This document shows, piece after piece, positions 1-25,362 of a DNA stretch of 64,000 bases. The notes under the pieces are model-generated. The model had not been told where the DNA came from, ran no database searches, and saw only the letters and a program-made list of their open reading frames with translations. The position numbers were made by a program, and so were the translations under genes. Source of the DNA: Thermoleophilia bacterium (GTDB taxonomy: Bacteria > Actinomycetota > Thermoleophilia > BMS3ABIN01); assembly GCA_014859345.1 (NCBI GenBank), contig JACUUL010000001.1, positions 2,720 through 66,719 of the forward strand, written 5' to 3'. The first letter of the stretch is position 1; every line of letters starts with the position of its first letter.

Positions 1-381
1 GTGGCGGGTATGGTCGAAACGCTGGCGCAGCCAGTTAGAGGCGTCCTTGAACTTCTTGTATGTGATGAGACGGATGACCAGCTCTTCACGGGCCTCTTCA
101 GGGGTGAGCTCCTCCAGGTCGAACTCCCCGGGCCGGGGCAACAACTGGGCTGACTTTATCTCCAGGAGCGAGCTCATGAGGATGAGGAACTCACTGGCAG
201 CCTCCAGGTCCAGCTCCTCTTTTTGCTCCAGCCGCTCCAGGTAGGAGATGACAATTTCGGCCAGCGAAACCTCGAAAATGCTGATCTCCTCTCTGAGGAT
301 AAGCGTCAGAAGCAGATCGAAGGGGCCATGAAAGATCTCCAGGTCAAGGTCCGGCAGCTCCAGGTGCCAGTCACCTGCCAT
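1..381 (-). CDS. scpA: Segregation and condensation protein A (ScpA), N-terminal part; gene runs off the window start
   Basis: Minus-strand translation from ATG at 381 reads MAGDWHLELPDLDLEIFHGPFDLLLTLILREEISIFEVSLAEIVISYLERLEQKEELDLEAASEFLILMSSLLEIKSAQLLP. This fits the ScpA N-terminal pattern (FxGPLDLLLxLI..EI.I..I.LA.I..QYL.YL). No stop occurs before position 1. It is absent from the ORF track, probably because it is open at the edge. Confidence 0.55.
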   Translation of the reverse strand, partial: MAGDWHLELPDLDLEIFHGPFDLLLTLILREEISIFEVSLAEIVISYLERLEQKEELDLEAASEFLILMSSLLEIKSAQLLPRPGEFDLEELTPEEAREELVIRLITYKKFKDASNWLRQRFDHTRH

Positions 382-480
382 CAAACCACCCCCGACCGCG
401 GGTAATGCCTGCGTTCGCGTGCCATCTCCCGCCTGCTTTTCTCCGCGCAGCCTGGGTTCCTGTTGCCGCTTTTTCCCTTT

Positions 481-1491
481 TTATATCCCGATCGCCTCGC
501 ATGCCTCCCCCAGCACTTCGGATGCGACTTTCTGGGCCCGCTGGCGGCCATCCTCCAGGATCGCCTCGATGCGACCAGGTTCGGTCATCAGCCGGCTCCG
601 TCTTTTCTGGATGGGTTCCAGCATGCCCACGACCCGGTCCGCCAGCCGACCCTTGCATTCGGTGCAGCCGATGGCGGCGGCGCGGCAGGCCCTGTCGATT
701 TCGTCAAGCTCCGCTGGCGGCGCCTCGAAAAAGCTGTGATAGGAAAAGACGTTGCAGGCTTCCGGATGGCCGGCGTCCCTGAGCGTCTTGCGGGCCGGAT
801 CGGTGTACATGGACATGACTTTTTTGCGCACGGTCTCGGCGTCGTCGGCCAGGTCGATGGTATTTCCGTAGGACTTGCTCATCTTGCGGCCGTCCAGCCC
901 CTGCAGGCGGGGCGTCTCGGTCAGTATCGCCCGGGGCTCCGGGAAGACCGGGCCGTAGAGCCCGTTGAAGCGGCGCACAATCTCACGGGCCAGCTCGAGG
1001 TGCGAAACCTGGTCCTCCCCCACCGGCACCCGGCCGGCCTTGTACAGGATGATGTCGGCGGTCTGCAGCACGGGATAGCCGAGGAAGCCGAAGGTGGCTA
1101 TGTGCTCGCCCAGCTCGCTGATCTGCTCCTTGTATGAAGGTACGCGGGTGAGCCAGGAGACCGGCACCAGCATGCCCAGCAGCAGGGCCAGCTCGCTATG
1201 CTCGCGAACGTCGGACTGCCGGAAGATGACGCTGCGCTCGGGGTCGATGCCCACCGCGATCCAGTCAGCCACCATCTCGACGCCATCGGCCTTCATGCCG
1301 GCGACATTATCGAAGCGGGTGGTGAGCGCATGCAGGTCGGCCACACAGTAGAAGCAGTCATAATCCTCCTGCAGCCTTACCCAGTTGGGTAGCGCCCCAA
1401 GAAGGTGGCCCAGATGCAGGCGGCCCGTGGGCCGCATTCCGGAAAAGACTCGCTCGCGCGGGGGAAGCCGGGGTTCCTTGGGTTCGGACAT
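481..1491 (-). CDS. trpS: Tryptophan--tRNA ligase (class I aaRS)
   Basis: 336 aa. N-terminal RPTGRLHLGHLLG (HIGH-type motif) and KMSKS near the C-terminus; size and motifs typical of TrpS. Confidence 0.88.
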   Translation of the reverse strand: MSEPKEPRLPPRERVFSGMRPTGRLHLGHLLGALPNWVRLQEDYDCFYCVADLHALTTRFDNVAGMKADGVEMVADWIAVGIDPERSVIFRQSDVREHSELALLLGMLVPVSWLTRVPSYKEQISELGEHIATFGFLGYPVLQTADIILYKAGRVPVGEDQVSHLELAREIVRRFNGLYGPVFPEPRAILTETPRLQGLDGRKMSKSYGNTIDLADDAETVRKKVMSMYTDPARKTLRDAGHPEACNVFSYHSFFEAPPAELDEIDRACRAAAIGCTECKGRLADRVVGMLEPIQKRRSRLMTEPGRIEAILEDGRQRAQKVASEVLGEACEAIGI

Positions 1492-1582
1492 GGAGGGATT
1501 TTATCGGAGCGGGGCGGAATATTAAAGCGGCGCGGGGGGAAATCAATTCCGCGGTCCGCGTGATGAGAATTGCGTGGCGGGT

Positions 1583-1945
1583 TTATTCGAACTGGCTGAG
1601 CTGATCCTCGTCCATGCCGAAATAATGGCCCAGCTCGTGCATGACCGTTTTGAGCACCTGCTCCCGGATTTCCTCGTCGGTTCGGCAGATCTGCAAGATG
1701 GGAAGGCGGAAGATCGTGATGCGGTCTGGAAGGACGCCCGCGTAGCCGAAGTCGCGCTGCGTGAGTGGAATTCCCTCATAGAGGCCCAGCAGATGATACG
1801 GGTCCCCCTCATCCATCTCATCCATCTGGCCGGGCCCGGGAAGGTCGGCGACATGGATGGCCACGTTTTCCAGCGCCTGGAAAAACTTTTCCGGAAGCGC
1901 GGCCAGGGACTCGCCTACCAGCTGTTCAAATCGCGCCGGATCCAC
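1583..1945 (-). CDS. Small zinc metallopeptidase-like protein (MMP-like minimal metalloprotease domain, COG3824-type)
   Basis: 120 aa with HELGHYFGMDEDQL (HExxH zinc-binding motif) near the C-terminus. Confidence 0.45.
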   Translation of the reverse strand: MDPARFEQLVGESLAALPEKFFQALENVAIHVADLPGPGQMDEMDEGDPYHLLGLYEGIPLTQRDFGYAGVLPDRITIFRLPILQICRTDEEIREQVLKTVMHELGHYFGMDEDQLSQFE

Positions 1946-2017
1946 CGGGTTTCACTCCTTGTCAGATTTGAGCGGATGGTTCTCTCATCGGCCGCCGGAA
2001 AGAAAATCTGCAGCGCC

Positions 2018-2962
2018 TCAGGTCCAGTGCAGCACAGCATAGGCGGTGGCCGTCCACAATACCACATTTATCAGCAAAGGTACATCGGTAAGAAGCACCT
2101 GCTCCGGGGAGCCGCCCCGCTGGCGGCGGTGCAGAAGATACAGATACCGGAATAAGCCATAAAGCACAAACGGGATGGTCAGCATCATCCATTCAGAGTC
2201 CAGCGCCGTGAAGCTGTACAGGGAATAGGAAACCAGGCTGGCAGCGGCCGCCACCCCAATCATCTGGTCCAGGAGCGCGAGGCTGTAATGCTCGAGGATG
2301 CTGCGATGATTGGCCGACTCTCCTTCCAGCAGCGTCAGTTCCGCCCTTCTTTTCGCCAGAGCCAGGAAGAGGGCCAGGAGCAGCGTGCATAGTACCAGCC
2401 ACGGTGAAATATAGGCGTGTATGACCGCGCCTCCCGCGACGGCCCTGAGGACAAACCCCGCGGCTATGCCCAGCACATCGAGTATCATCAGATGCTTCAG
2501 CACAAACGTGTACAACAGTTGCAAGACAATGTAGAAGGCAAAGAAGAGGGACATCAAAGGCTCGATCGCCAGCCCGAAGCCCAGGGCCGCCGCAATCAAC
2601 AGGCCGGAAATGGCTACGGCAGTGGCCGCGTCCACCCGGCCGCTGGCGATGGGGCGGTCTTTCTTGACCGGGTGAAACCGGTCCCGCTCCCTGTCAAGAA
2701 CGTCATTTATCAGATAGCCGGCCGACACAACCGCGCAGAATCCGGCAAAGGCGGCCCAGACTGTCAGCTGCAGGTCCCAGTTAAAGACGTTCTGGGAAAA
2801 GATCAGCCCGGCGAAAACGACCAGGTTCTTGATCCACTGCTTCGGCCTGAGCGACACCAGGATGTCCCGGGCCAGTCCGGCCCGGCTCTTCCCGGCGCCG
2901 GCCAGAGGGCTGCCGCCGATCTCCCCGTCTGGAGCTATCCCCCGGCTGTCGAAATTATCCAT
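2018..2962 (-). CDS. UbiA-family prenyltransferase, decaprenyl-phosphate phosphoribosyltransferase (DPPR synthase, Rv3806c-like)
   Basis: 314 aa polytopic membrane protein. LRPKQWIKNLVVFAG and NDVLDRERDRFHPVKKDRPIASGRV (NDxxDxxxD...KxRP) match the Rv3806c-type UbiA family. Overlaps the upstream GT-C gene by 8 nt. Confidence 0.65.
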   Translation of the reverse strand: MDNFDSRGIAPDGEIGGSPLAGAGKSRAGLARDILVSLRPKQWIKNLVVFAGLIFSQNVFNWDLQLTVWAAFAGFCAVVSAGYLINDVLDRERDRFHPVKKDRPIASGRVDAATAVAISGLLIAAALGFGLAIEPLMSLFFAFYIVLQLLYTFVLKHLMILDVLGIAAGFVLRAVAGGAVIHAYISPWLVLCTLLLALFLALAKRRAELTLLEGESANHRSILEHYSLALLDQMIGVAAAASLVSYSLYSFTALDSEWMMLTIPFVLYGLFRYLYLLHRRQRGGSPEQVLLTDVPLLINVVLWTATAYAVLHWT

Positions 2963-4508
2963 CTTGGTAAGTCCATTGTCCCGTGCCCTGATCCAGCGCT
3001 CTTATGAGCCTCAGCAACCCGGTTTCGGAATCGTAGCTGAACAAATAGCCATCTCCCTCATCTCTGGCAGATTTGACTGAGCTGCCCAGATATATGACCT
3101 TCAGGTCGTCCCTGTCATAGGCGATGCGTATGGCCGGCTGCAGGCCGGTGATAAAAACATACGCGCCTCCCTGCCATTCAGGGACGCCCCTGAAATAGAT
3201 TTTAGCATTCTCATGAGGGTCGGGAAGCAGGGCCCGGGCCTGCAGGGGCAGGCTGTGGTTTATGGCGGCCGCCCTCTCCCAGGGCCTGTTATTGAAATTC
3301 ACTCCCACAAAATACACCGGCAGCAGGGCCAGCAGGGCTGCCGCCGCGCCTATCTGCCACTTGCGGTTTTTCCATCCGAACTCGAGCAGCCCCAGCGCTA
3401 CCAGTGACAGAACGGCCAGTGTGGGAAAATACAGCACACGAATTTCCCGGAGGCTGTGATTCACTCCCATCATAAAGAGCTGTGCATAAACAGGCGCAAT
3501 CGAGGCGCCGAGGAAAACTGCCATGAACAGCCACAGCCGTCTGATTCCCGCAGATGTGCGCTGCCAGCGCCAGAACACGACCAGAAGCGCCGACAGGCAC
3601 AACAAGCTGGTAAACGCCAGCAACGCATATATGGCCCCCATGGGAAACTCATGACTATTAAGCGGCGACAGGAGAGTAGTGATGGTGCGGGCGGCGGCGC
3701 CCGGATAGGGCCTGCCTATGACAGGCACATCCTGGTATCCGCCCAGGCGCCCCAGGCTGGCGTAGCGCACGGCGATATGGCCCATGAATATCACAAAAAA
3801 AATCGAAAGCCTCGCAAGCGGCCCGTACATGCGCGGCAGAAGCGAAGTCAGATCCGCCCGGACACTGTCGGCTTCCCGAGTTCTGTCCTCCGATGGAAAC
3901 CGGCGGCCATACAGCAATTCCATGGCCGGAACAAGCACAATCAGGACCATCGCTGTCTCTTTGCTGAAAAACGCTGCGACAGCCGCCAGCATGGCTCCTG
4001 CGAAGGCAAAGCGGTTCCCTGACCTGATGGTGACCCCGTAAAGGCACAGTGCCAGCAGGGTGAACATCAGAGCCAGAAGATCAAAGCGTCCAGACACCCA
4101 GGTAACCGTCTCCGGAGCCACCGGGCTGATTACGAACAGCGTCGCGGCAAGTCCCGCGGAAAGCCTGCGGGCTCCCCAAATCGTAAGGAACCAGAAGAGC
4201 AGATATGCTGTCGCCGCCTGCAACAGGGTATTGATCAGATGAGCGGGCCAGGCCGACATCCCGAAAACGTTATATTGAATCCACCACACAAACAGCGGTA
4301 CTGGCCTGACGAAGCTGGGCAACACCGTAAACAGCTGCCAGAGGCCGGTAACCTCCAGGGAGCCGGCCCTGCTTATGAAGGCGAAGTCATCGGCGATGAA
4401 CGTGTTGTTCATTACAGTCCAGTAGGCTGCCACAACCAGGCCAAAAAGGAAGGCAAACATTGATAGTCCGGACAAACCAGACTTTCTCGTCCATGACATA
4501 TCACTCAT
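2955..4508 (-). CDS. GT-C fold membrane glycosyltransferase (ArnT/PMT_2-like), paralog 1
   Basis: 517 aa, about 12 predicted TM helices, acidic DD motif in the first loop (FIADDFAF), C-terminal soluble domain. Clear similarity along its length to the upstream 514-aa paralog (AYWTVMNNTFIADDF vs AVYWPVLNNTLISDDH; DGYLFSYDSETGLLRLI vs DGYLIDYDQEQGLLRLV). Confidence 0.45.
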   Translation of the reverse strand: MSDMSWTRKSGLSGLSMFAFLFGLVVAAYWTVMNNTFIADDFAFISRAGSLEVTGLWQLFTVLPSFVRPVPLFVWWIQYNVFGMSAWPAHLINTLLQAATAYLLFWFLTIWGARRLSAGLAATLFVISPVAPETVTWVSGRFDLLALMFTLLALCLYGVTIRSGNRFAFAGAMLAAVAAFFSKETAMVLIVLVPAMELLYGRRFPSEDRTREADSVRADLTSLLPRMYGPLARLSIFFVIFMGHIAVRYASLGRLGGYQDVPVIGRPYPGAAARTITTLLSPLNSHEFPMGAIYALLAFTSLLCLSALLVVFWRWQRTSAGIRRLWLFMAVFLGASIAPVYAQLFMMGVNHSLREIRVLYFPTLAVLSLVALGLLEFGWKNRKWQIGAAAALLALLPVYFVGVNFNNRPWERAAAINHSLPLQARALLPDPHENAKIYFRGVPEWQGGAYVFITGLQPAIRIAYDRDDLKVIYLGSSVKSARDEGDGYLFSYDSETGLLRLIRALDQGTGQWTYQDG

Positions 4509-4555
4509 CGATGGCCCCTGTTGCGCTCAGAATTCTTGAACAAAGCGGCTCCATG

Positions 4556-6100
4556 TCAATTATCCTTGACCAATCTCAAAAGGCCCTGCTCCTGGTCATA
4601 ATCAATTAGGTAGCCATCAGTATCACTTTCAGGCAAAGGCTCATCGAAGTAATCCCCTGATGCCAGTCTCCTGACGCGGGTCACAATAATGTCGTCGCGG
4701 CCATACGCAGAATATAAAGCTTGCCGGAATCCAATCACGAAGACATAGCTGTCTTTCCAGGCAGGCACATGGATGAAGGTCATCCTGGCATTCTGCGGCG
4801 GATCAGGTATCAGCTCCACAGTCTGTTTTGGAATACTGTAATTCATTGCCGCTGCCCGCTGCCACGGACGGTTGTTGGCATGCAGTCCCGCTATATATAC
4901 CGGCAGCAAGACCGATAAGGCCAGGATTGCGAAAATCCGCCATGACCGTTTATGCCAGCCGAATTCCAGCATGCTGATAGCCAAGAGGGCCAGAACCGCA
5001 AGAGTCGGGGAATAAAGCAGGCGGCTCTCGCGAAGATTATTGGAAACGCCTGTCTGAGAAAGAACGGCATAACCGGGAAGAAGGGAACCGATTAAAAAGA
5101 TGATCATAAAGACAAGCATTTTTTTTGAATCGGCCGCGGCCCGGCGCCAGCGCAAAATGACAAGCGATCCACCGATGAGGAAAAGAGTGGCAGAGTAAAA
5201 ACCCAGGTAACGGATCAACCCCCATGACACCTCCGCGCTGTTTAGCGGCGATAGTGTTGTCTTTAAAGTGCTCAAGGCGTTTGCTCCCGGCAAAGCAAGC
5301 AACGGGAGGTCGCCATAACCGCCCATTCTCCCGAGAATCGCATAATGAAGCACAACGCTGGCGAACACGATCACGGAAAAAACAAACATCCTTGTCAGAA
5401 ATTTCCAATCAGAAAATTGAGCCCGGCTATTATTTATCAGCATTTTGGCAATATTGGCTTTCCTGCTGTCAATAGCGTAGGAGGATCTGTCCGCATAAAG
5501 AAGCTCCATGGCGGGCAACATCAGGACAAGCATGTATGCCTGTTCCTTGCTTAATAAGGCGGCCATGGCGGCCGCCATGGCCGTGCCGAAATAACCCCAG
5601 CTTTTCTTTTTGAGTGCGAAGAAATAAAGTCCGACAGTCAACAACGTGAAGAACAGCGCCATCAAATCATGCCGTCCAGACAGCCAGGTGGCCGCTTCCG
5701 GCGCGACTGGCGTCACTAAAAAAAGTACCGCAGCGGCAGTGGCCGTAAGACCGCGTGCCCCAAGCATTCGTAAAAGCCAAAACATAAGGCTGGCGACGCC
5801 CGCGTGCAGAAACACATTGATTAAATGCGCGGGCCAGGGATTAAAGTCAAAAAGGCGAAACTGGATCCAATAGGTCAGCCAGGTGAATGGCCGAACAGAG
5901 AAGTTTGACTGCAGAGTGAATAAGGAACCAAGCTCGGAGACTGGCAAGGAGCGCAACTCATAATAATAGAAGTGGTCATCGGAGATGAGAGTGTTGTTGA
6001 GCACTGGCCAGTACACCGCCACCGCCAGTCCGGCAAGAAGAATGAACAAGAAAAACAGTCCGCTCAGATTCTTTGATTTATTCTCTTTCCCCCCTTTCAC
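4556..6100 (-). CDS. GT-C fold membrane glycosyltransferase (ArnT/PMT_2-like), paralog 2 (lower GC)
   Basis: 514 aa, same architecture and conserved blocks as 2955..4508, but markedly lower GC (about 45% vs about 60%). Confidence 0.45.
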   Translation of the reverse strand: MKGGKENKSKNLSGLFFLFILLAGLAVAVYWPVLNNTLISDDHFYYYELRSLPVSELGSLFTLQSNFSVRPFTWLTYWIQFRLFDFNPWPAHLINVFLHAGVASLMFWLLRMLGARGLTATAAAVLFLVTPVAPEAATWLSGRHDLMALFFTLLTVGLYFFALKKKSWGYFGTAMAAAMAALLSKEQAYMLVLMLPAMELLYADRSSYAIDSRKANIAKMLINNSRAQFSDWKFLTRMFVFSVIVFASVVLHYAILGRMGGYGDLPLLALPGANALSTLKTTLSPLNSAEVSWGLIRYLGFYSATLFLIGGSLVILRWRRAAADSKKMLVFMIIFLIGSLLPGYAVLSQTGVSNNLRESRLLYSPTLAVLALLAISMLEFGWHKRSWRIFAILALSVLLPVYIAGLHANNRPWQRAAAMNYSIPKQTVELIPDPPQNARMTFIHVPAWKDSYVFVIGFRQALYSAYGRDDIIVTRVRRLASGDYFDEPLPESDTDGYLIDYDQEQGLLRLVKDN

Positions 6101-6406
6101 GATGCTTCCGGCTCCAATTGAAATGAATGGGAAAAAAAGTACCGAAAATTATCAGCCAGCGGCTGTATTTTGTTCTTCGGGCTAACAAAACGCAGTTCCA
6201 TTGACAGGAAAGCACTGCAGCCATTTAAAACGAAAGACGCGGCCGCTATGAAATGAACCGTGCTGCCTAACGAGCGTCCAAAGTATTTTGAAAGGAAGAA
6301 CCGGGGAAATGCGGTTAAGGGGATGACGATGCCCCTGACGAAATTCATGGGATATGCAGGTGTGATGCTTCCCCACCTCCAAGGAAACAAACGGCTTTGA
6401 GAGGTT

Positions 6407-6440
6407 TTATTGTAGTATAAATATGGTTAAAGAGAAATGG
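6407..6440. promoter_or_regulatory. Copy A of a conserved about 34-nt intergenic motif (ATTGTAGTATAAAT...GAGAAATGGG)
   Basis: Exact 11-mer ATTGTAGTATA and GAGAAATGGG block are shared with 8065..8098. Both copies lie 30-60 nt 3' of a minus-strand stop codon. Confidence 0.3.
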
Positions 6441-6473
6441 GATGACCGGGTTTGTCCGGGAAGGGCTGTCTAA

Positions 6474-7925
6474 TTAAGGATGCCTCGGAATTTCTCTTTT
6501 TTTAAGCCAAAAATTTCGATTGAACAGGACAGTCCAGATGCGTTTGAGGATTACCTTGAGCTGATAAAGAGTCTTTATTTCCCTGGCCATCCCCCAGATC
6601 ACCCGTGGCCTGACATAAAATCCGATGACTGCTTTCCTGACGAATTTCTCAAGGACCCGGGAGTCAATTTCAGACACAAAAGGAATGATCTGGTAATACA
6701 AGAATTTGTTCCAGTCAAAATCTTCCGCCGGGACTTTTTTCCTCCAGTCTGAATAAATTTCAGTTCCGGGCAAGGGCATGACAGGAGAAAAGCTTGCCTT
6801 GTTCAGCTTCAGCCTTCTGGAAAATCTTATGGTCTTCTTAATCTCCTCCACTGTCTCCCCGGGATATCCCAGAAGAAAAAAGCCGGTCACGTTTAAATTG
6901 GACGAATTTTTAATAAGATCCACCTTCTCTTCAATCTGGTCCGTCGTGAGTTTCTTTCTCATCCTCCTGAGGACATCGTCGGATCCCGATTCAATCCCGA
7001 CAGCAACCGAATAGCACCCCGAGTCTTCCATGGCTTCAAGCATCTCCGCGTCGATGCGGTCAAGCCTGATTCCGTTCGGGCAGGCCCATGGCATTCTTAA
7101 ATTCCTTCGCTTCACAAGCGATGTGAACTCCATGACGTAATCCTTCTTCATCGTGAAGTTGTCATCTTCGATATGGAATTCCTTGATTCCATAATTTCTG
7201 ACCAGATACTCGATTTCATCAACGACATCCTCTGCCGGCCTGTACCTGATTTTTCTGCCGAACACCTTAAACGCGGCGCAGAAGGTGCACGGATAGGGAC
7301 AACCCCGGGAAGTCAACACCGGAGCGACCGGATATCCGCGCGAAAAGGTGCCGTGAGGAGATATGGGATATGTCCTGGGATCGATGAGGTCCCAGGCGGG
7401 GCGGGGAAGCGTGGCAAGATCTTCCGACTGAGCTATCTCGTTTATGCAGACTTCACCTTCATTAACCGGGTAAGCCACGTTCTTTATGCCGGCAAGCCTG
7501 GTTTTGTCATCAAGATCGCCCTTGTCGAGCTTCATCAGTTCCACGATGGCCTCTTCTCCTTCGCCGACCACCGCGCAATCAACGTCCGGTAATATCGAAA
7601 ACGTCTGCTCTACATCTCCCGATGGATGGGGGCCGCCCAGAACCAGGATGGCCTCCTCGTTCAAAGCCCGGGCAACATGGACCATCCGCCTGGCGGACGG
7701 GATGCCGCTGGTATAAACCTGAAAGCCGATAAGATGGAATTCCTTTCCCGACAGATATCCCCTGAAATCCTCAGGGCCGATATCTTCCTTGTTGCAATCG
7801 AGAATCACCGCGTCCAGCCCGCTTTCCCGAAGCGAGGCGGCGAGATAGCCGAGACCCAGGTTAGGCATGACGCTATAGGTGTAAACGTCTTTTGGTTTTA
7901 TCAATAAGGCTTTTCTTTGTTCCAT
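6474..7925 (-). CDS. B12-binding radical SAM protein (class B radical SAM)
   Basis: 483 aa. N-terminal cobalamin-binding (Rossmann-like) domain, then CPYPCTFC (CxxxCxxC radical SAM cluster motif). Lower GC than the surrounding genome. Confidence 0.8.
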   Translation of the reverse strand: MEQRKALLIKPKDVYTYSVMPNLGLGYLAASLRESGLDAVILDCNKEDIGPEDFRGYLSGKEFHLIGFQVYTSGIPSARRMVHVARALNEEAILVLGGPHPSGDVEQTFSILPDVDCAVVGEGEEAIVELMKLDKGDLDDKTRLAGIKNVAYPVNEGEVCINEIAQSEDLATLPRPAWDLIDPRTYPISPHGTFSRGYPVAPVLTSRGCPYPCTFCAAFKVFGRKIRYRPAEDVVDEIEYLVRNYGIKEFHIEDDNFTMKKDYVMEFTSLVKRRNLRMPWACPNGIRLDRIDAEMLEAMEDSGCYSVAVGIESGSDDVLRRMRKKLTTDQIEEKVDLIKNSSNLNVTGFFLLGYPGETVEEIKKTIRFSRRLKLNKASFSPVMPLPGTEIYSDWRKKVPAEDFDWNKFLYYQIIPFVSEIDSRVLEKFVRKAVIGFYVRPRVIWGMAREIKTLYQLKVILKRIWTVLFNRNFWLKKREIPRHP

Positions 7926-7957
7926 ATCCCGGCAAGGTCCGTTATCGCGGCGCGGCA

Positions 7958-8007
7958 GGAAAGGAAAACCGGCGCACGCAACCGAAAATTCGCGCCGGCC
8001 TTTTTCT
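7958..8007. terminator. Bidirectional rho-independent terminator-like hairpin
   Basis: CCGGCGC-16 nt loop-GCGCCGG (7969-7998), followed by TTTTTCT on the plus strand and preceded by GGAAAGGAAAA (T-rich on the minus strand). Lies between the Cys-rich gene and the radical SAM gene. Confidence 0.4.
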
Positions 8008-8064
8008 ATCCCGGAGGTTCAGGCTGTCCCGAACACTCACTCGACAGACGTAAATGGGAAGTTA

Positions 8065-8098
8065 AATTGTAGTATATATGCGATTCGAGGAAAATGGG
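8065..8098. promoter_or_regulatory. Copy B of the conserved intergenic motif (ATTGTAGTATATAT...GAGGAAAATGGG)
   Basis: See copy A at 6407..6440. An additional AAATGGGAAG sits just upstream at 8053-8062. Confidence 0.3.
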
Positions 8099-8160
8099 CA
8101 GGGAACAGCCCGTGTATGTCAGGGAATCGCAGAGTATTGCGCCTGTCCCGGGCGAGACAG

Positions 8161-8532
8161 CTAGGTATTATTGGGATAAACAGCTTCTTCCGCGGAATAG
8201 CGGTCCCTCAGGGCGCGCCGGCAGTTATCTCCATGCTCACGGTTATATGCCTTCTCTACCGTGACCGAACAACGGTCCAGGGGGGGCCTGACAACCTTGA
8301 CCGCGCCGAAGCCTCCCTTGCGCTTCTCCAGCTCCTTGAAGCCTTCCAGGTCGATCTCCACGGCGAAGACCTTGTAAAGGCAGCCAAAGTAGGTGCCGGA
8401 ATTGCCCTCGTCATAGGAATATATATATTTGCAGCCGGAATTGAAACAATTGGCCGGGTAGATGACCTTCTCGCAGAGCACGCCGCACTCGGCGCATTCG
8501 AGTTCTTCGCTTAGTTCCAGAATTAAAGACAT
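8161..8532 (-). CDS. Small cysteine-rich hypothetical protein (possible metal/Fe-S binding)
   Basis: Starts at internal ATG 8532 (MSLILELSEELECAECGVLCEKVIYPANCFNSGCKYIY...). The eight Cys fall in CxxC-like clusters. Divergent from nrdJ. No confident family assignment. Confidence 0.3.
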   Translation of the reverse strand: MSLILELSEELECAECGVLCEKVIYPANCFNSGCKYIYSYDEGNSGTYFGCLYKVFAVEIDLEGFKELEKRKGGFGAVKVVRPPLDRCSVTVEKAYNREHGDNCRRALRDRYSAEEAVYPNNT

Positions 8533-8739
8533 TTGTACCTTTCGCTTTGCCGCAGCCCGGGTCCTGATAAAACCGTCCGGGGATTTCGAACCTGCAGAGC
8601 CGCTCGTTTCCAAACTGCATAATTGTACTGCCTCGGGGAGCTTTGGGCAAGGTCTTGCGGTTCAATTATTTTGAGAGGGGGTAGAAGAAAACAAGATTGA
8701 ATCCGGCAGGCGCCTGAACCGCTGCGTTTCAAAGAAACA

Positions 8740-10851
8740 ATGGCAGAGATTAAAATCAAGGAGATTCGCGCCCGCAATGGCCGCCTCCTGGCCTTTGACG
8801 CCGGGCGGATCGAGCGAGCGATCGCCAGGGCCGTGGCGGCAGCGGGTGAGAGTGATGGCGAGGTATCGCGAGAGCTGGCCCAGCAGGTTATTGACCGGCT
8901 CGATCAGAAATATGCCGGCGGGACCCCCACTGTCGAGGAGATACAGGACATGGTGGAAACCGTGCTGATGGAGACGGGTCACGCCGAGACAGCCCGTGCC
9001 TACATCACCTACCGCCGGCGCCATGCCGACCTCCGGGCCGCCAAGCGCTTTCTGGGCGTAAAGGATGACCTGAAGCTGCCGATCAACTCGCTGACCGTCC
9101 TGAAAAAGAGATATCTCGTCAAGGACGAAAAGGGCGAGGTGGTAGAGACGCCGCGGGAGATGTTCAATCGGGTGGCCGGCCACATCGCGGCGCCAGACGC
9201 CGCCTACGGCGACGATGCGGCCGCCTCGGAAGAGGCCTTTTTCCGGATCATGGCCAGCCGCGAATTCCTGCCCAACTCCCCCACCCTGATGAACGCCGGC
9301 ACGGAGCTGGGGCTGCTCTCGGCCTGTTTTGTCCTGCCGGTGCCAGACTCGATCCCCGGCATCTTCGATTCCATAAAATACATGGCCATAATCCACCAGG
9401 CCGGCGGCGGCACAGGGTTTTCCTTCTCCAACCTGAGGCCCAAGGGAGACATCGTGGGCACCACTCACGGCATCGCCTCCGGGCCCGTCAGTTTCATGAG
9501 CGCCTTTGACGGGGCCACCGAGGTCATAAAACAGGGCGGGCGGCGCCGGGGGGCAAATATGGGCGTGCTGAGAGCGGACCACCCCGACATCCTTGAGTTC
9601 ATCACGGCCAAGCAGCGGGAGGACTTCCTGGTGAATTTCAATGTTTCGGTGGCAGCCACGGACGCCTTCATGCGGGCGGTCCGCGATGACGGCGAGTTCG
9701 ACCTGATTAACCCGCGCAACGGCGAAGTCACCGGCAGTTTAAAGGCGCGCCCGGTGATGGAGGCCATTTCCTCGGCTGCCTGGCGCACCGGAGACCCGGG
9801 AATGATCTTCCTGGACCGCATCAACGAGGCGAATCCCACTCCACAACTGGGCCCCATGGAGACGACCAATCCCTGTGGCGAACAGCCGCTGCTGCCCTAT
9901 GAGTCCTGCAACCTTGGGTCGATCGACCTGGCCAGGCTGGTCAAAAACAGCAGCATGGACTGGAAGCGGCTGGGCGGGCTTATCGACATCTCGGTTCATT
10001 TTCTGGATAACGTCATCGACGCCAACCGCTTTCCCCTTGCCGAGATCACCGAGATGACCAACGGCAACCGCAAGATCGGCCTGGGAGTCATGGGCTTTGC
10101 CGAAGCGCTGATCAAGTTGGGCATCCGCTATGACTCCGAGGAGGGGCTGGCAACCGGCGAGAAGATCATGAAATTCATCTCTGAGAGAAGCATCGCCAAA
10201 TCGCGGGAGATCGCCCGCCGGCGCGGCTCCTTCCCGAACTTCGAGGGCAGCCTGTGGCAGCAGCGGGGCCTGAGCGAGATGCGCAATTCCACAGTGACCA
10301 CCGTGGCGCCGACCGGCACGATCAGCGTCATCGCCGGCACCAGCAGCGGCATCGAGCCGCTTTTCGCGATCTCTTTCGTGCGGGATGTGATGGAGGGCAC
10401 CCGACTGCTGGAGGTCAATCCGGAGTTCAAGCGGGTGGCCATCGAACGCGGCTTCTACAGCGACGATCTGATGATGCGAATCGCCAAAACCGGCAGCGTC
10501 CAGGATGTGGAGCAAATCCCTGAGGATGTCAGGAACCTCTTCCGGACCGCTCATGACATCATGCCGGAATGGCATGTGCGCATGCAGGCGGCCTTCCAGA
10601 AGCATGTGGACAATGCAGTTTCCAAGACGATAAACCTGCCCCGGGAAGCCGGAATCGACGAGGTCCGCAAGGCGTACCTGCTTGCCTACGACCTGGGCTG
10701 CAAGGGGATCACGGTCTTCCGTTACGGCAGCAAGAAACAGCAGGTTCTGTACCTGACCGGGGACATCATGGGAAACGGCGCCGAAGCCGAGCATCTGCGC
10801 GCCGCCCCGGAGTTTGCCGGAGGATGCCCCACCATCGACTGCGAGTTTTAG
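8740..10851 (+). CDS. nrdJ: Ribonucleoside-diphosphate reductase, adenosylcobalamin-dependent (class II)
   Basis: 703 aa. N-terminal ATP-cone, catalytic NPCGEQPLLPYESCNLGSIDL block, C-terminal Cys pair (CPTIDCEF). No nrdB/nrdG partner nearby. Sits in a genome segment rich in B12 biosynthesis genes. Confidence 0.75.
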   Translation: MAEIKIKEIRARNGRLLAFDAGRIERAIARAVAAAGESDGEVSRELAQQVIDRLDQKYAGGTPTVEEIQDMVETVLMETGHAETARAYITYRRRHADLRAAKRFLGVKDDLKLPINSLTVLKKRYLVKDEKGEVVETPREMFNRVAGHIAAPDAAYGDDAAASEEAFFRIMASREFLPNSPTLMNAGTELGLLSACFVLPVPDSIPGIFDSIKYMAIIHQAGGGTGFSFSNLRPKGDIVGTTHGIASGPVSFMSAFDGATEVIKQGGRRRGANMGVLRADHPDILEFITAKQREDFLVNFNVSVAATDAFMRAVRDDGEFDLINPRNGEVTGSLKARPVMEAISSAAWRTGDPGMIFLDRINEANPTPQLGPMETTNPCGEQPLLPYESCNLGSIDLARLVKNSSMDWKRLGGLIDISVHFLDNVIDANRFPLAEITEMTNGNRKIGLGVMGFAEALIKLGIRYDSEEGLATGEKIMKFISERSIAKSREIARRRGSFPNFEGSLWQQRGLSEMRNSTVTTVAPTGTISVIAGTSSGIEPLFAISFVRDVMEGTRLLEVNPEFKRVAIERGFYSDDLMMRIAKTGSVQDVEQIPEDVRNLFRTAHDIMPEWHVRMQAAFQKHVDNAVSKTINLPREAGIDEVRKAYLLAYDLGCKGITVFRYGSKKQQVLYLTGDIMGNGAEAEHLRAAPEFAGGCPTIDCEF

Positions 10852-11268
10852 GAAATCTATCCCTAAAATCCGCTCCTCAATGCCGGGTCTGGATGATTTT
10901 AAGGGTAATGCCCTCTCCTTTGTTCTTCCCCCCGTCAATGTTAAAAGCTCTGCCCCTGCGTGAAAATTTCCTCAATTTGCAGGCATATCATCGCTCCTGG
11001 AATCGTCACGTACTCTTTAAATACGACCACTTTGGTCAAAAAAGTTATAGCAATAATAAAAATAGGGGTTTTCCCCGATAGCCAGGCGCCCGCGCCCGCG
11101 ATATGCTCTCAGCACGTAGTTTTAGTCCTACCTTTTTAGGAGCGAGGCACCTGACCGCGCCCGGCGACGGACAATTTTCTCGAAGCGCCGGGTTGGGGAG
11201 GCTTTGAGGACAAGGGGCTGGCGGATAACGACGGCTGTTTGGTTCGATAAATCGATTCCAGCAAGGAG

Positions 11269-11754
11269 GTGACGAAAATGCAGCTTACCAGGCAAGCGGA
11301 TTATGCGATCAGGGCGCTTCTTAAATTATCAGAAGTTGAGTATGGCAGCGTTATCCAGACCAAGGAAATCGCTTCTTGTGAAGCGATTCCGGAGAAATAT
11401 CTGCCGACCATCATGCGCACCCTGGCTCGCGCCGGCCTTGTAAGGACCCTGAGGGGCAATCAGGGCGGCGTTCTGCTGGCCCGCCAGCCGTCCGAGATAA
11501 ACCTGCGGGAAGTCATAGAGGCAATCGAGGAGCCGATTGTACTCAATCGCTGTCTTCGTGATAGAGGCGAGTGCTCACGTGAGGAGTTTTGCCCCGTTCA
11601 CCCCGTCTGGGACCGCATACAGAAATCACTCGTGGAGCGGCTTGAATCCACTACGTTTGCCGATCTGGCAACGGAGAGAATATCTGCGGCGGCCGGGTCT
11701 TCCAAGGGATGGCAATACGATGAAGATCCGAGACGGGAAAAAGTTCCCGCTTAG
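11269..11754 (+). CDS. Rrf2-family transcriptional regulator (IscR/NsrR-like, 3-Cys cluster-ligand motif)
   Basis: MQLTRQADYAIRALLKLSE (Rrf2 winged-helix N-terminus) and CLRDRGECSREEFCPV (C-x6-C-x5-C). Confidence 0.8.
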   Translation: MTKMQLTRQADYAIRALLKLSEVEYGSVIQTKEIASCEAIPEKYLPTIMRTLARAGLVRTLRGNQGGVLLARQPSEINLREVIEAIEEPIVLNRCLRDRGECSREEFCPVHPVWDRIQKSLVERLESTTFADLATERISAAAGSSKGWQYDEDPRREKVPA

Positions 11755-12036
11755 GATTCCGAAGCAGGATGGGAGTGACTGGGCCTCCAGGAGGGCACTC
11801 ATCGACGGATAGCTGATGTGGCAGCGAAACAGCGGAGCCGGGTTTGGAGAGGACACGAAGCCAAGACACGCGCGCAAGACCCGGATAAAAAACTTCATAA
11901 GGGAATTTTCTCCCTATTTCTCAGGCAGGCGACAAGCCTGCCTGATGACTTTGCGAAGCCCTTTGGTGTCCTTCCGTTTCAACAGCACGCCCTTTTTCAG
12001 CTTTAAAGCGCCGCCTGTTTAGGTTAATATTTTCCC

Positions 12037-14388: not shown

Positions 14389-14679
14389 TCAGCAGCCCTC
14401 CAGCCGCTTGACCTCCAGTTCTCCCAGGTGAAGCGGCCCGGTGCCAGTATTTTTCAGCTCAAAATCATGCTCGACCAGTTCCCCCACCGGCACTTCGCCG
14501 AAATCGTACATGGTTTCACTTATCTCAAGCCTGCCACCTGTATCGGCGGTGATTACCGCCGTGCTGGCTTCCTCCTCCCCGCAACCGGCAAGCAGCACCA
14601 TCAGCGCCAGGGCAGAGCCCAGCGCCGCCAGGATCGCGGCTCCCTGCCGTTTGCCGCGAAAATTCACGATAAAGCCCAT
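14389..14679 (-). CDS. DUF1573-domain lipoprotein
   Basis: Signal/lipobox (LLAGCGEE) and MYDFGEVPVGELVEHDFELKNTGTGPLHL, a typical DUF1573 signature. Confidence 0.5.
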   Translation of the reverse strand: MGFIVNFRGKRQGAAILAALGSALALMVLLAGCGEEEASTAVITADTGGRLEISETMYDFGEVPVGELVEHDFELKNTGTGPLHLGELEVKRLEGC

Positions 14680-14822
14680 CAGCAGCTCCTTTTTACGAGG
14701 CGAGCCCGGCGGGCAGCCGGTGTAAATCGCTCGGCTGAAACTAATAAAAGTAGTACTTCTACATCATAGCCGCATTTTAAAGCCTTTTGCATGGTTATCC
14801 CAGTTAAGAATTCTTAAAAAGC

Positions 14823-14844
14823 GATTCTGAAATGATTCTGAAAT
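14823..14844. repeat. Tandem direct repeat GATTCTGAAAT x2 in an AT-rich divergent intergenic region
   Basis: Seen directly at 14823-14833 and 14834-14844, between the DUF1573 operon (minus) and the sensor gene (plus). Confidence 0.4.
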
Positions 14845-14927
14845 ATTAGACGTGATTTTATCCGAAAAGGCGCAGCCCGGCCCGGCCCAAATGCAAGTTA
14901 TTCCATTCTTTTGCTTGAAAGCGGGAA

Positions 14928-15653
14928 TTGGTCTATAAATCAGAAACCGGTTTTGTTAGAGCTTTTTCTAGCTCTGTCGCCTATAATTCAGATTCGGGCC
15001 GCGCCGCCGGGAAGATGGTCTCTTTCAGCCAGGGAAGTATTGCTGTTGTGATGATTTTTTCCAAAAATTTTCCCAACCGGCATGTGATCATGATGATGGT
15101 CGTCATCATTCAGCTGGGCGTAATCGGTTTGCTCGACATGCTGTTTTTAGTTGAGCTTCCCCTGATGTATGTTTTGTGGCTGGTCCCGATATTTTTCGCT
15201 TTGTTCTTTTTGAGTACGGCCGAAGTTGTGGCGGTAGCGCTGGCCGCCTCCATGATCTGTCTGACCGCGCAAGCGGCCGCCGCGGAAAGGCTGTCTCTGA
15301 TTAATTGCCTTGCCATCGCCTTGTTCGGCATTGCCGCCGCTATTGCAGCGATTCCGGTGCGCCGGTATATCCAAACCGTCAACATGACCCGCAGCGCGCT
15401 GGAAAAATCCCCGCTTGCTCATGCAAAGTTCACGTTTCCCGGATATTCCATCATTGATTGCAACAGCGCCTTCGAAAAGCTGTCAAGCACGATGACCGGC
15501 CCGGGTCCGAAAAAATCGCTTTTTGACGCTTTCCCCCGGGAATCGGCCAATCAGATGGCCGAGCTCATGGATGAAGTCATCGCATCTCACACAGAGACCG
15601 AATGCAAGGAGCTCCGCTTTCCATCTCCCGGTGGCGGCTTTTATTTTTGGTGA
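14928..15653 (+). CDS. Sensor protein N-terminal part: membrane segments plus first half of a PAS domain (interrupted by in-frame TGA at 15651-15653)
   Basis: Hydrophobic TM block, then PAS-like FPGYSIIDCNSAFEKL...ECKELRFPSPGGGFYFW ending at a TGA. Same frame as the next ORF. Confidence 0.35.
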   Translation: MVYKSETGFVRAFSSSVAYNSDSGRAAGKMVSFSQGSIAVVMIFSKNFPNRHVIMMMVVIIQLGVIGLLDMLFLVELPLMYVLWLVPIFFALFFLSTAEVVAVALAASMICLTAQAAAAERLSLINCLAIALFGIAAAIAAIPVRRYIQTVNMTRSALEKSPLAHAKFTFPGYSIIDCNSAFEKLSSTMTGPGPKKSLFDAFPRESANQMAELMDEVIASHTETECKELRFPSPGGGFYFW

Positions 15654-23050: not shown

Positions 23051-23389
23051 TCACCTTTCCAGCTCCAGGATTTCTTGCATGAACTCGATATGGGCGTCTT
23101 TCGGCAGGCGAAATCCGGCCTCCGCCTCCAGCGCCATCAATATCCCGGCCGGGACCGGACAGGACACGTGCTTTAAATGCCTGTCCGCGGCCCGGTAAAC
23201 CGGATTTTCCATGAACCTGACGAAGGCGTCCATACGGTTCAGCTCTTTAATGTCGCCGGCCATGCGGGTCACGTGCTCGCAGTCGCTCTTCATTTCAACG
23301 CTGTATGGCTCATTTTTGCCGCCGTTTCGTATGCGTACCCAGGTGATGAAACCGCAGGCCCCAGAGGTTATCCTGACGGAGGTGGTCAC
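23051..23389 (-). CDS. Hypothetical 112-aa protein, translationally coupled between RACE and HdrE-like genes
   Basis: 4-nt overlap with the RACE stop and a 3-nt gap to the HdrE-like start. Contains 4 Cys and 6 His. No known family recognised. Confidence 0.3.
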   Translation of the reverse strand: MTTSVRITSGACGFITWVRIRNGGKNEPYSVEMKSDCEHVTRMAGDIKELNRMDAFVRFMENPVYRAADRHLKHVSCPVPAGILMALEAEAGFRLPKDAHIEFMQEILELER

Positions 23390-25362
23390 CCTTTTACCGG
23401 CACGGCCGAGCCGGATTCCTCAAGCATTTTCTTTACATGAGGAAATTTGTCTTTCATGTGGGGTATATGCATGGCCTGTATGAACTCTTTCTCGAATTCC
23501 GGCTCCACTGCTATTTCCAAGTACTCGAGTTCTCTGGCCTGCTTCCTGGCCTCCAGCCGCTTGGTCCTGCTCAAAAGGGCCATTATGGCTCCATCGCCTG
23601 CGGCATTGCCCACCGCGTAAACCTTCTCCGGATCGCAATCAGGAAACATCCCCAGTGTCATCGCGGATTTCTTGTGTATGTAACTTCCAAAGGCCCCGGC
23701 CAGTATGACCTTTTCCACTTTCGCTATGCCCATTTTTTTCATCATCAGCTTGGCGCCGGTGTAAAGGGCCGCCTTGGCCAGCTGCAGCGCCCGGACGTCC
23801 GCCTGCGCGATGGTAATGTCTGTGCCAATAGATGTTTCCTTCGCCCAGGCCAGGACATATTCGAGTTTCCCGTCATGGTCCCGGCGAACTCTCTCCGTAT
23901 CCAGATCCTTGGCCATTCTTCCGGATTTGTCTATTATGCCTGCCTTGAACATCTCCGCCACTACATCGATTATCCCGGAGCCGCATATGCCCTTTGCCTC
24001 TATGTCGCCCTTGATTTCGGTATGCCATTCCTCTTTGCCAATTACTTTATACACGGGCTCCCTGGTCTGCGGGTCGATCTTCACTTTCTCTATGGCGCCG
24101 GGGGCGGCCCTCATGCCGAATTTTATCTGGGCTCCCTCAAATGCCGGACCCGTGGCGCAGGAAGTCGAGGAGAGATGTTCCTTGTTTCCGAGCAGGAGCT
24201 CGCCGTTCGTGCCAATGTCGATAATCAGAACCTTCTCTTTCATCCGGTACGGCTCCTCAGCAATGAGGACGCCCACGTTGTCCGCGCCCACGAAACCCGC
24301 CTCGATCGGCAGGACATGAACATAGGACGCATGGTTAATCCCTATATCCATATCCCGGGCCTTGATGTTAAGGTCGTTCTGCACCGCCGGGATGAAAGGC
24401 GCCAGGCCGATATACACCGGATTAAGGCCCAGGAATATATGGTGCATGGCTGTATTGAAGACTATTGTCATGTCCACTATCGACTGGCCGCCGGGCTTCG
24501 CGTCCATTTCGTAATTCGCTGTCAGCCTGCCGATCAGGTCGTTCAGGCCGTCTATCAAGGCCTTCTGCATGGTCTCGAGCCCGCCCTCGGTCATCATGGC
24601 GTAGGTGATCCGGGACATCACGTCCTCGCCGTAAGGAACCTGGGGATTCATCATCGACTCGGTTCTGACCACCTCGCCGGTTGTCAGCTCGCATAGGTAC
24701 GCGGCCACGGTAGTGGTCCCCACGTCCACCGCCAGCCCCAGGGAGGATTCCACGAAACCCGGTTCCACTTTCACTATCTCGGAATCCATCCATATGGAGA
24801 CTGTAATTTTCCAATCACCTTCCCTGATGACGTCCTGCAGGCCAGTAAGCACGGCATAGTCCATCGAGAGGCCCGTGAGGCCGTATTCCGCCTCGATCTC
24901 GGCTTTCAGCCTTTCCAGGTCACCCACGATAGTTTTTTCCAGAGTGGGTTTCTCCAGCTCCACGAAGTATTTCCTTACCGCCGGCTCAATAGGCACGGTC
25001 ACCTTCCGGGCCGTCTTTCTGACTATCTGCTTTCCGGCACGGGATTTCTCGGGAACGAAGAGCTTGACGTCTCCATGGAGCTCGGCGGCGCAGGCGAGCC
25101 TGATATTCTCACCGTCGGCGGGTTTTATGAACTTCTTTTCCCCATCCGTAATGGGACTCAGATTTGTCATCCGGGAATCAATATTGTCTTTCTCGAAATA
25201 ACCTTCATCCACCCGGACCTTGCATTTGCCGCAGGTTCCCTTGCCTCCGCATATGGATTCGAGATCCACTCCCAGTTGCTGCGCGGCCTCGATCAGGCTT
25301 TTTCCCTCTTCCACTTCGCCGCGCCGGCCCGAGGGCTGAAAAATTACCTTATGCTTGCGCAT
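23386..25362 (-). CDS. RACE-type reductive activator of corrinoid enzymes (2Fe-2S ferredoxin plus ASKHA ATPase domain; RamA/RACo-like)
   Basis: 658 aa. N-terminal plant-type ferredoxin (CGGKGTCGKCKV) followed by a large ASKHA/DUF4445-type ATPase domain. Confidence 0.8.
   Translation of the reverse strand: MRKHKVIFQPSGRRGEVEEGKSLIEAAQQLGVDLESICGGKGTCGKCKVRVDEGYFEKDNIDSRMTNLSPITDGEKKFIKPADGENIRLACAAELHGDVKLFVPEKSRAGKQIVRKTARKVTVPIEPAVRKYFVELEKPTLEKTIVGDLERLKAEIEAEYGLTGLSMDYAVLTGLQDVIREGDWKITVSIWMDSEIVKVEPGFVESSLGLAVDVGTTTVAAYLCELTTGEVVRTESMMNPQVPYGEDVMSRITYAMMTEGGLETMQKALIDGLNDLIGRLTANYEMDAKPGGQSIVDMTIVFNTAMHHIFLGLNPVYIGLAPFIPAVQNDLNIKARDMDIGINHASYVHVLPIEAGFVGADNVGVLIAEEPYRMKEKVLIIDIGTNGELLLGNKEHLSSTSCATGPAFEGAQIKFGMRAAPGAIEKVKIDPQTREPVYKVIGKEEWHTEIKGDIEAKGICGSGIIDVVAEMFKAGIIDKSGRMAKDLDTERVRRDHDGKLEYVLAWAKETSIGTDITIAQADVRALQLAKAALYTGAKLMMKKMGIAKVEKVILAGAFGSYIHKKSAMTLGMFPDCDPEKVYAVGNAAGDGAIMALLSRTKRLEARKQARELEYLEIAVEPEFEKEFIQAMHIPHMKDKFPHVKKMLEESGSAVPVKG

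Follow-up and report, generated by a model that had tools for sequence, protein, structure and literature searches.

An apparently mosaic radical SAM, GT-C and UbiA gene cluster at a low-GC segment of a Thermoleophilia genome

We analyzed a 64,000-nucleotide (nt) stretch of DNA from a Thermoleophilia bacterium (GenBank assembly GCA_014859345.1, contig JACUUL010000001.1, positions 2,720 to 66,719; hereafter the window), and in particular a segment near its start in which guanine-plus-cytosine (GC) content is low. Four genes lie within this segment and beside it in the order rSAM, GTC2, GTC1, UbiA, i.e., a class B radical S-adenosylmethionine (SAM) enzyme gene, two genes for glycosyltransferases of the GT-C fold, and a UbiA-family gene of the type of decaprenyl-phosphate phosphoribosyl (DPPR) synthases (Table 1). 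The UbiA gene, which is key to the cluster, lay outside the sequence-only reading that had singled out the segment. Fetched loci and their proteins are denoted below by L and P numbers, respectively.

Table 1. Features of the window (nt positions; ORF, open reading frame; aa, amino acids; GC3, GC content at third codon positions).
Feature	Position	Strand	Remarks
trpS	481-1491	-	
Zincin_1 protein gene	1583-1945	-	
UbiA-family gene, DPPR synthase type	2018-2962	-	NCBIfam NF008977/NF008978
GTC1, GT-C fold glycosyltransferase gene	2955-4508	-	517 aa (501 aa if start M17)
Spacer GTC2/GTC1	4509-4555		47 nt; promoter-like site, compositional boundary
GTC2, GT-C fold glycosyltransferase gene	4556-6100	-	514 aa, GTG start
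Spacer radical SAM gene/GTC2	6101-6473		373 nt; AT-rich, GC 0.461
Class B radical SAM gene	6474-7925	-	483 aa (476 aa in NCBI call)
Small Cys-rich ORF	8161-8613	-	150 aa (123 aa if start 8532)
Class II ribonucleotide reductase (RNR) gene	8740-10851	+	
Rrf2-family regulator gene	11269-11754		just downstream of class II RNR gene; GC3 0.59
Smaller low-GC dip	14601-15653		GC 0.44-0.48; intergenic stretch and start of the next ORF
ORF	14928-15653		241 aa; no Pfam match, GC3 0.61, AT-rich amino acids
Corrinoid methyltransferase system	23386-30018	-	RACo activator, corrinoid protein, two URO-D/MtaA-like methyltransferases, MtrH-like subunit
Anaerobic cobalamin synthesis and cobalt-uptake cluster	31660-49549	-	Pfam: CobS, CbiJ, CbiG + TP_methylase, three further TP_methylase proteins, CbiD, ABC_tran, CbiM, CbiX + CbiC, CbiA, class I/II aminotransferase, BtuR/CobO, CbiB, CobQ, CobU
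Rrf2-family regulator gene	53507-53992		
tRNA gene	57294-57370		sole tRNA in the window

In steps of 400 nt, GC content runs at 0.58-0.65 over positions 1-4400, falls to 0.43-0.53 over 4400-7200, stays at 0.51-0.56 up to ~8800, and lies at 0.62-0.65 beyond. The segment from 4.4 to 8.7 kb has the lowest GC of the 64 kb (~0.50 versus 0.596) and is its strongest compositional anomaly; among all 3.5-kb windows, the minimum (0.499) starts at 4451 (mean 0.595, standard deviation [sd] 0.037). Likewise, tetranucleotide frequencies agree least with those of the remaining window at starts 3001-4501, where the correlation is 0.43-0.45 (mean 0.598, sd 0.062). The GC drop described by the sequence-only reading is real, although GC in the 5′ half of the radical SAM gene is 0.53-0.56 and not the 0.43-0.50 given for it. 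Moreover, the low-GC stretch, which that reading had closed at 8100 after starting it at 4556, fades out only at ~8740 and takes in the ORF at 8161-8613. The checks proposed at the time (sliding-window GC, codon usage and tetranucleotides) agree that composition is not uniform, with GTC2 and the radical SAM gene as the deviant members.

Gene by gene, GC is 0.571 in GTC1, 0.507 in GTC2 and 0.500 in the radical SAM gene. GC3 is 0.83 in trpS, 0.76 in the UbiA gene, 0.68 in GTC1, 0.59 in GTC2, 0.60 in the radical SAM gene and 0.81 in the RNR gene, corresponding to z-scores of -2.5 (GTC2), -2.2 (radical SAM gene) and -0.8 (GTC1) relative to 52 other window genes (mean 0.726, sd 0.056). Codon usage separates the foreign genes more sharply than GC does: by Kullback-Leibler divergence of synonymous codon usage across the 35 window genes of at least 250 codons, GTC2 ranks 1, the radical SAM gene 3, GTC1 26 and the UbiA gene 31. 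More specifically, relative synonymous codon usage (RSCU) correlates with that of the pooled window at 0.546 for GTC2 and 0.602 for the radical SAM gene, as against 0.848 for GTC1 and 0.894 for the UbiA gene (26 other long genes: mean 0.883, sd 0.05, minimum 0.753). First-position GC and the content of FYMINK amino acids (F, Y, M, I, N and K) are shifted in the AT-rich direction in both deviant genes as well. The switch from foreign (GTC2) to native (GTC1) codon usage falls within the 47-nt spacer between the two genes. We rejected membrane-protein composition as a source of the low GC; GTC1 and UbiA are also membrane proteins and have normal GC3 and codon usage, and since GTC1 shares the architecture of GTC2 and is nevertheless normal, membrane-protein nature does not explain the shift of GTC2.

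The UbiA protein passes the cut-offs of NCBIfam NF008977 (276.1 versus 234) and NF008978 (222 versus 207), and aligns over its full length to the Mycobacterium tuberculosis DPPR synthase (DPPRS) structure 8j8j (E 8.6e-36). It keeps the NDxxDxxxD motif (INDVLDRERD) and the R..E residues of loop IV (KRRAEL); the Asp-rich NDxxDxxxD of loop II and the loop IV R..E are needed for the activity of DPPRS and of polyprenyl-phosphate phosphoribosyltransferases (PPPRS) (PMC11127046). Thus, the protein belongs by its sequence to the decaprenyl/polyprenyl-phosphate 5-phosphoribosyltransferases, and the corresponding activity is predicted. Its gene, whose start overlaps the stop of GTC1 by 8 nt, is native in composition and codon usage. 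Homologs are 60-68% identical, several of them in metagenome-assembled genomes (MAGs) labelled Thermoleophilia. In relatives (L173/L174, L175, L177/L178), the UbiA gene stands in the fixed order ispA, dxs, tlyA, nadK, recN, UbiA, DUF362, LPG_synthase_TM; these loci hold neither a GT-C nor a radical SAM gene, and their context differs from that in the window.

GTC1 and GTC2, both of ~515 aa, are 44% identical over their full length. The AlphaFold2 (AF2) model of GTC2 (predicted local distance difference test [pLDDT] score 86.4, predicted template modeling [pTM] score 0.90) was matched by Foldseek to STT3/PglB, DPY19, Pmt4, ArnT, EmbB and AftD (probability 1.0, TM-score ~0.45-0.5), and by this model GTC2 is a GT-C fold protein. 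All residues invariant in the family (72 counted for GTC1) are kept in both copies, which therefore look functional at the sequence level. Among them is a DD pair after the first transmembrane helix (D40/D41 in GTC1, D41/D42 in GTC2) that is invariant in the family and nearly so in distant PMT_2-like matches; in the GTC2 model, it lies just past helix 6-29, in the first extracytoplasmic loop. Both proteins narrowly or clearly miss the 26.1-bit threshold of Pfam PMT_2 (PF13231, related to GT39 and GT83), with 25.7 bits for GTC2 and 18.7 for GTC1, and they are a family related to PMT_2 without formal membership. A profile of the GT-C family found no match among Protein Data Bank (PDB) sequences. 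The use of a polyprenyl-phosphate-linked donor may be expected from the fold and from the overlapping DPPR synthase gene. The only repeat between the two GT-C genes (4214-4252 and 5800-5838, 74% identical) was considered as a sign of gene conversion and rejected, as it is the homologous position in the two paralogs.

The GT-C family is compact, with ~40 full-length clusters at 50% identity within the huge GT-C superfamily (profile search of 1.84 billion cluster representatives). Neighbour joining places GTC2 together with P0002-P0005 and P0173 in a clade (bootstrap 100) that excludes GTC1; the latter is sister to this clade (bootstrap 77) and has no homolog above ~45% identity. With only 44% identity between them, and with GTC2 closer in the tree to proteins of other organisms than to GTC1, the copies do not represent a recent or lineage-specific tandem duplication, in agreement with what had been proposed from the sequence. 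The accompanying proposal that the copies are xenologs holds for composition (foreign in GTC2, native in GTC1), but an origin in different lineages is unproven, since hosts of the family share the tetranucleotide signature of the window.

Elsewhere the family is multi-copy as well, with two paralogs in L002 and three in L004/L008, where the copies are part of extensive polysaccharide clusters that also hold GT4, GT2, Wzy_C, DUF2079 and methyltransferase genes. The tetranucleotide match of L002, L004/L008 and L005 to the window (0.77-0.78) lies above that of all 72 background loci (maximum 0.751), and at L004/L008, which hold the closest homologs of GTC2, locus GC is 0.49, as compared to 0.507 for GTC2. 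One of these loci, L005 (GCA_027371445.1), is syntenic with window positions 49000-63609, the shared proteins being 52-93% identical. The shared genes include those for IspD, IspF, GltX, CysS, YacP, CobU, a sigma factor, and a histidine kinase with its response regulator. In L005, one GT-C of the family (P0007) and then an Amidase_3 gene stand between the sigma factor gene and the kinase/regulator genes, a place taken in the window by genes for glyceraldehyde-3-phosphate dehydrogenase (GAPDH), class I aldolase and tRNA-Thr. Within the lineage of the window, the GT-C family has evidently changed places, and it seems confined to genomes with the window's tetranucleotide signature. Given this shared signature and the syntenic relative L005, the donor of GTC2 was probably a lower-GC member of the same broad lineage rather than of a distant phylum.

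The radical SAM protein contains a B12-binding domain (Pfam PF02310, residues 17-130, E 4e-22), a Radical_SAM domain (PF04055, E 2.1e-26) and the CxxxCxxC motif (CPYPCTFC, at residue 209), and the enzyme type named by the sequence-only reading is correct. Its AF2 model (pLDDT 92.3), the C-terminal part of which is helical, was matched by Foldseek to MgmA/QCMT (9ccb), AprD4 (6fd2), TsrM, OxsB, TokK and CysS. The proposed SPASM/B12 classification returned the B12-binding domain and no SPASM match in Pfam, and it led to no named subfamily: every cut-off was missed among the NCBIfam class B subfamilies (BchE, HpnJ, HpnR, PhpK/Sden_1168, MgmA, AprD4, KedN5, BzaD and others), the best scores versus cut-offs being 178/575 (Sden_1168), 167/481 (BchE) and 132/360 (MgmA). 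The subfamily to which the protein belongs is populous. Its best homologs are 57-59% identical and all named ones are from Omnitrophota; in a neighbour-joining tree, the protein is nested in successive clades (bootstrap 100/91/97) whose sole labels are Omnitrophota. In contrast, matches labelled Actinobacteria or Actinomycetota are just 38-40% identical. The loci of the orthologs (L009, L010, L012) have a GC of 0.40-0.475. Taken together, there is good evidence that the radical SAM gene moved across phyla into the lineage of the window.

The neighbourhood of these orthologs recurs. In three of three ortholog loci examined (L009, L010 and L012), a UbiA gene passing NF008977 and a PMT_2-type GT-C gene lie within a few kb, whereas the 80 loci (784 kb) around distant B12 radical SAM paralogs contained neither a UbiA nor a GT-C homolog; this control came from a metagenome scan with the radical SAM protein that gave only paralogs of at most 31% identity. 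This contrast (3/3 versus 0/80) functionally ties the radical SAM protein to the DPPR synthase/GT-C pair, and its recurrence with these two partners points to a lipid-linked pentofuranose pathway. All three loci also carry one or two further B12 radical SAM paralogs (26-31% identical to the window enzyme), making sets of two or three such genes side by side, and two class I methyltransferases, and such sets suggest multi-step tailoring of one substrate; no class I methyltransferase gene occurs within or next to the cluster of the window. At L012 (8001-10154), the ortholog and a class I SAM methyltransferase domain form one fused protein (P0061, 717 aa); its gene starts inside the tail end of the upstream GT-C gene, which is itself closely preceded by a UbiA gene. 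This fusion is a hint, of the Rosetta-stone type, that ties the radical SAM subfamily to methyl transfer. Our literature searches returned no paper linking a radical SAM enzyme with PPPRS/GT-C systems.

The host has its own supply of B12. The anaerobic cobalamin synthesis and cobalt-uptake cluster of the window is complete and forms its highest-GC block (0.63-0.69), so that both the class II RNR and the class B radical SAM enzyme can be supplied with B12 by the host.

On these grounds we lean, with moderate confidence, toward reading the locus as a four-gene, same-strand mosaic cluster whose outer half was acquired horizontally and which adds a possibly modified pentofuranose to a cell-envelope glycan. 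UbiA and GTC1 would be the resident pair, and GTC2 and the radical SAM gene would have arrived later, probably in separate events: GTC2 likely from a lower-GC relative carrying the lineage-restricted GT-C family, and the radical SAM gene likely from an Omnitrophota-like donor in which it already stood beside a DPPR synthase UbiA and a GT-C. A single donor for both was considered and is unsupported, as the RSCU of the two genes correlates at only 0.431 and their nearest homologs occur in differing types of locus; no fetched locus holds both GTC2-type and radical SAM homologs. The gene trees do not match the host, with the radical SAM protein in an Omnitrophota clade and GTC2 among proteins of other genomes, possibly relatives.

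The catalytic steps, the sugar and the acceptor of such a pathway are all predictions, set beside observed family assignments, folds, motifs and neighbourhood. UbiA would make polyprenyl-phospho-ribose-5-phosphate from phosphoribosyl pyrophosphate (PRPP); enzymes encoded outside the cluster would remove the 5-phosphate and flip the lipid-linked pentose across the membrane; the radical SAM enzyme, to judge by its gene neighbourhood, would tailor the lipid-linked pentose or glycan; and the two GT-Cs may transfer the pentofuranose at the outer face, to two acceptor sites or by two linkages. For the tailoring step, C-methylation would be the most probable chemistry because of (i) the class B architecture, (ii) the methyltransferase fusion at L012, and (iii) the host's own cobalamin supply, with radical dehydration or epimerisation as an alternative in view of the similarity to AprD4.

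Several observations weigh against this reading. The trees were built by neighbour joining with few taxon labels, and the neighbourhood rule comes from only three ortholog loci, two of them possibly from related organisms; the GT-Cs at the Omnitrophota-type loci have no BLAST similarity to GTC1 or GTC2 at E<1e-3. Neither a phosphatase nor a flippase, DprE1/E2 or epimerase of the short-chain dehydrogenase/reductase (SDR) type is encoded within or next to the cluster. At the borders of the low-GC stretch, a search for mobility genes, tRNAs, flanking direct or inverted repeats and insertion sequences found none, and the GC shift is moderate, at ~10 points. A trpS search (one genome per species) yielded no close relative for comparison; the best match, at 62% identity, is on L013, a 70%-GC contig that lacks the cluster, and the remaining TrpS matches are ~50% identical and of mixed phyla, most of them outside the window's own. 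Finally, the radical SAM protein is structurally as near to AprD4 as to the methylases, and AprD4 is a sugar diol-dehydratase to which cobalamin does not bind (PMC12931638). Because AprD4 is equally near and no class B subfamily cut-off is reached, methylation is only one possible chemistry for the enzyme, and its use of cobalamin, judged from the model, is likely rather than certain. Of the horizontally acquired glycan-modifying step that the sequence-only reading had suggested, acquisition is thus upheld by the foreign composition and the Omnitrophota nesting, and methylation is reduced to one candidate.

A broader proposal, which we regard as tentative and rather less probable than the mosaic origin itself, is that the locus represents an undescribed conserved pathway made up of a DPPR synthase UbiA, a GT-C and at least one class B radical SAM enzyme. 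In it, a radical SAM enzyme would act on the pentofuranose while this is linked to polyprenyl phosphate, ahead of its transfer by a GT-C; the pathway would be native to Omnitrophota and would have been transferred here onto a resident UbiA-GT-C pair. Such tailoring could be C-methylation, or ribose could be turned without O2 into arabinose, xylose or a deoxy sugar, a route that would take the place of DprE1/E2 or SDR epimerases in anaerobes. More modestly, the recurring set of UbiA, a GT-C and a class B radical SAM enzyme is plausible as a further version of the known systems for lipid-linked pentofuranose glycosylation, with the radical SAM enzyme in the tailoring role.

One described pathway close to it is that of mycobacteria, where decaprenyl-phospho-arabinose is made by the UbiA protein Rv3806c (DPPRS), the phosphatase Rv3807c and DprE1/DprE2, and is used by the GT-C arabinofuranosyltransferases Emb and Aft. 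Like Rv3806c, the window UbiA meets the cut-offs of its NCBIfam families and aligns with 8j8j; in M. tuberculosis, aftB (Rv3805c) adjoins ubiA, again placing a UbiA gene beside a GT-C gene. Unlike in mycobacteria, there is no DprE1/E2 or PAP2 phosphatase near the window cluster, and GTC1 and GTC2 have a small C-terminal beta domain and are nearer to STT3, DPY19, ArnT and Pmt than to Emb/AftD. Closest among described systems are the three-component ones for extracytoplasmic pentofuranose glycosylation, whose prototype in Citrobacter youngae O1/O2 comprises ORF15 (PPPRS-PRP), ORF14 (MATE flippase), ORF12 (the GT-C that founded GT136) and, as SDR epimerase, ORF13 (Kelly et al. 2024, PMC11127046); PPPRS/flippase/GT-C systems occur with auxiliary donor-modifying enzymes, some with several GT-Cs (PMC11127046). 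The window cluster resembles it in encoding a UbiA-family polyprenyl-phosphate phosphoribosyltransferase beside GT-Cs, together with a candidate auxiliary enzyme for donor diversification. It differs in that (i) its UbiA lacks a fused PRP phosphatase domain, and the cluster a MATE flippase and SDR epimerase; (ii) a class B radical SAM protein takes the auxiliary role, the word "radical" being absent from the text of PMC11127046; and (iii) the host is an uncultured, cobalamin-making anaerobe. The radical SAM enzyme itself shares with the OxsB/TsrM/TokK/QCMT class and AprD4 an N-terminal Rossmann-type B12-binding domain, a CxxxCxxC barrel and a helical C-terminal part, and differs from the named class B enzymes in scoring below every subfamily cut-off and in a recurring UbiA and GT-C context that the review PMC12931638 does not describe (its text contains neither "glycan" nor "polyprenyl"). 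With genomic islands and seroconversion cassettes, the segment shares atypical composition and codons, gene trees at odds with the host, and glycan-modifying cargo; unlike them, it lacks an integrase, a tRNA target, flanking repeats and any phage context, measures just ~4 kb, and was probably assembled in two steps beside a resident pair of matching function. Judged as an island, the segment is nothing unusual, being small, free of mobile elements and loaded with glycan genes.

Among the competing explanations, the one that survives best, though we consider it unlikely, is that GTC2 and the radical SAM gene are old residents, GTC1 and GTC2 being ancient paralogs and the odd codons resulting from weak expression or relaxed selection. 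The missing mobility signatures would fit, as would the multi-copy state of the GT-C family in the related L002 and L004, which makes old paralogy normal, the window-like tetranucleotide signature of the family's hosts, and the presence of other small low-GC3 genes in the window, e.g., those at 11269-11754 and 14928-15653. Nevertheless, the RSCU correlations of the two genes lie 5-7 sd under those of the other long genes, the AT shift extends to first positions and FYMINK content, and GTC1, a paralog of the same architecture that probably belongs to the same operon, is normal; drift also fails to account for a radical SAM protein that is nested among Omnitrophota and only distantly matched in Actinobacteria/Actinomycetota. 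Ancient paralogy with differential loss is compatible with the GT-C tree alone but disfavoured by codon usage.

To a marginally lesser degree still, the radical SAM gene might serve another pathway (lipid, cofactor or peptide) and have landed by accident in a permissive spot. The 373-nt spacer that parts it from GTC2 and a codon usage unlike that of GTC2 would agree with this, as would the failure to reach any subfamily cut-off, with the best partial matches being a P-methyltransferase, BchE, HpnJ and MgmA; the recurrence of UbiA and GT-C near all three orthologs but none of the paralog loci, and the common strand of the cluster genes, speak for a functional link instead. An assembly or binning chimera, in which reads of a lower-GC organism were joined into the contig, is very improbable: the source is a MAG and both foreign genes resemble genes of other community members, but a separate assembly, Logan contig L001 (11,936 nt, run SRR11917416), reproduces the order RNR, rSAM, GTC2, GTC1, UbiA, trpS, to scpAB, across both borders and with 100% identity in each ORF compared, both borders are short spacers between intact genes on the same strand, and the nearest homologs, at no more than 59% identity, are too distant for a co-assembled neighbour. 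The mosaic cluster thus remains our preferred reading.

The minor features around the cluster are as follows. A sigma-70-like match by consensus, scoring 10/12, occurs at 4559..4532 on the minus strand (TTGACA, 16 nt, AAGAAT). The sole feature of the 373-nt spacer is a weak hairpin (6165-6153); Rfam at E<=1 returned no riboswitch or other RNA over positions 1-12000, including this spacer and the surroundings of the class II RNR gene. A 97-aa ORF at 6097-6390, considered as a gene, is probably spurious (no Pfam match, GC3 0.53, poor coding statistics). The Cys-rich ORF, at the far edge of the low-GC stretch between the radical SAM and RNR genes, has a GC of 0.545 and a GC3 of 0.66, and contains CAECGVLCEKVIYPANCFNSGCKY; it is called as a gene in L001, matches no Pfam or NCBIfam entry and has no homolog in any fetched locus, and its membership in the unit is uncertain. 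Farther away, the corrinoid methyltransferase block is compositionally distinct (GC ~0.55, with Lys-rich proteins, K/(K+R) 0.62-0.67) and points to an anaerobic methylotroph or a demethylating lifestyle. The second low-GC dip and the two Rrf2-family regulators are listed in Table 1.

Mycobacterial arabinan, a drug target, depends on lipid-linked pentofuranose glycosylation, as does the diversity of O-antigens and pilins, and to our knowledge the known donor-diversifying routes are flavin/NAD epimerases. As an instance of genome evolution, the locus would be a glycan cluster built piecewise, with foreign genes placed beside a matching resident pair and no visible mobile element. If the link to the radical SAM gene is coincidental, what remains is an ordinary small island of surface-glycan genes. 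If it is true, the pentofuranose pathway would gain a new tailoring chemistry through a recurring B12-type radical SAM partner in anaerobes, and a populous class B radical SAM subfamily without known function would be placed in a biological context.

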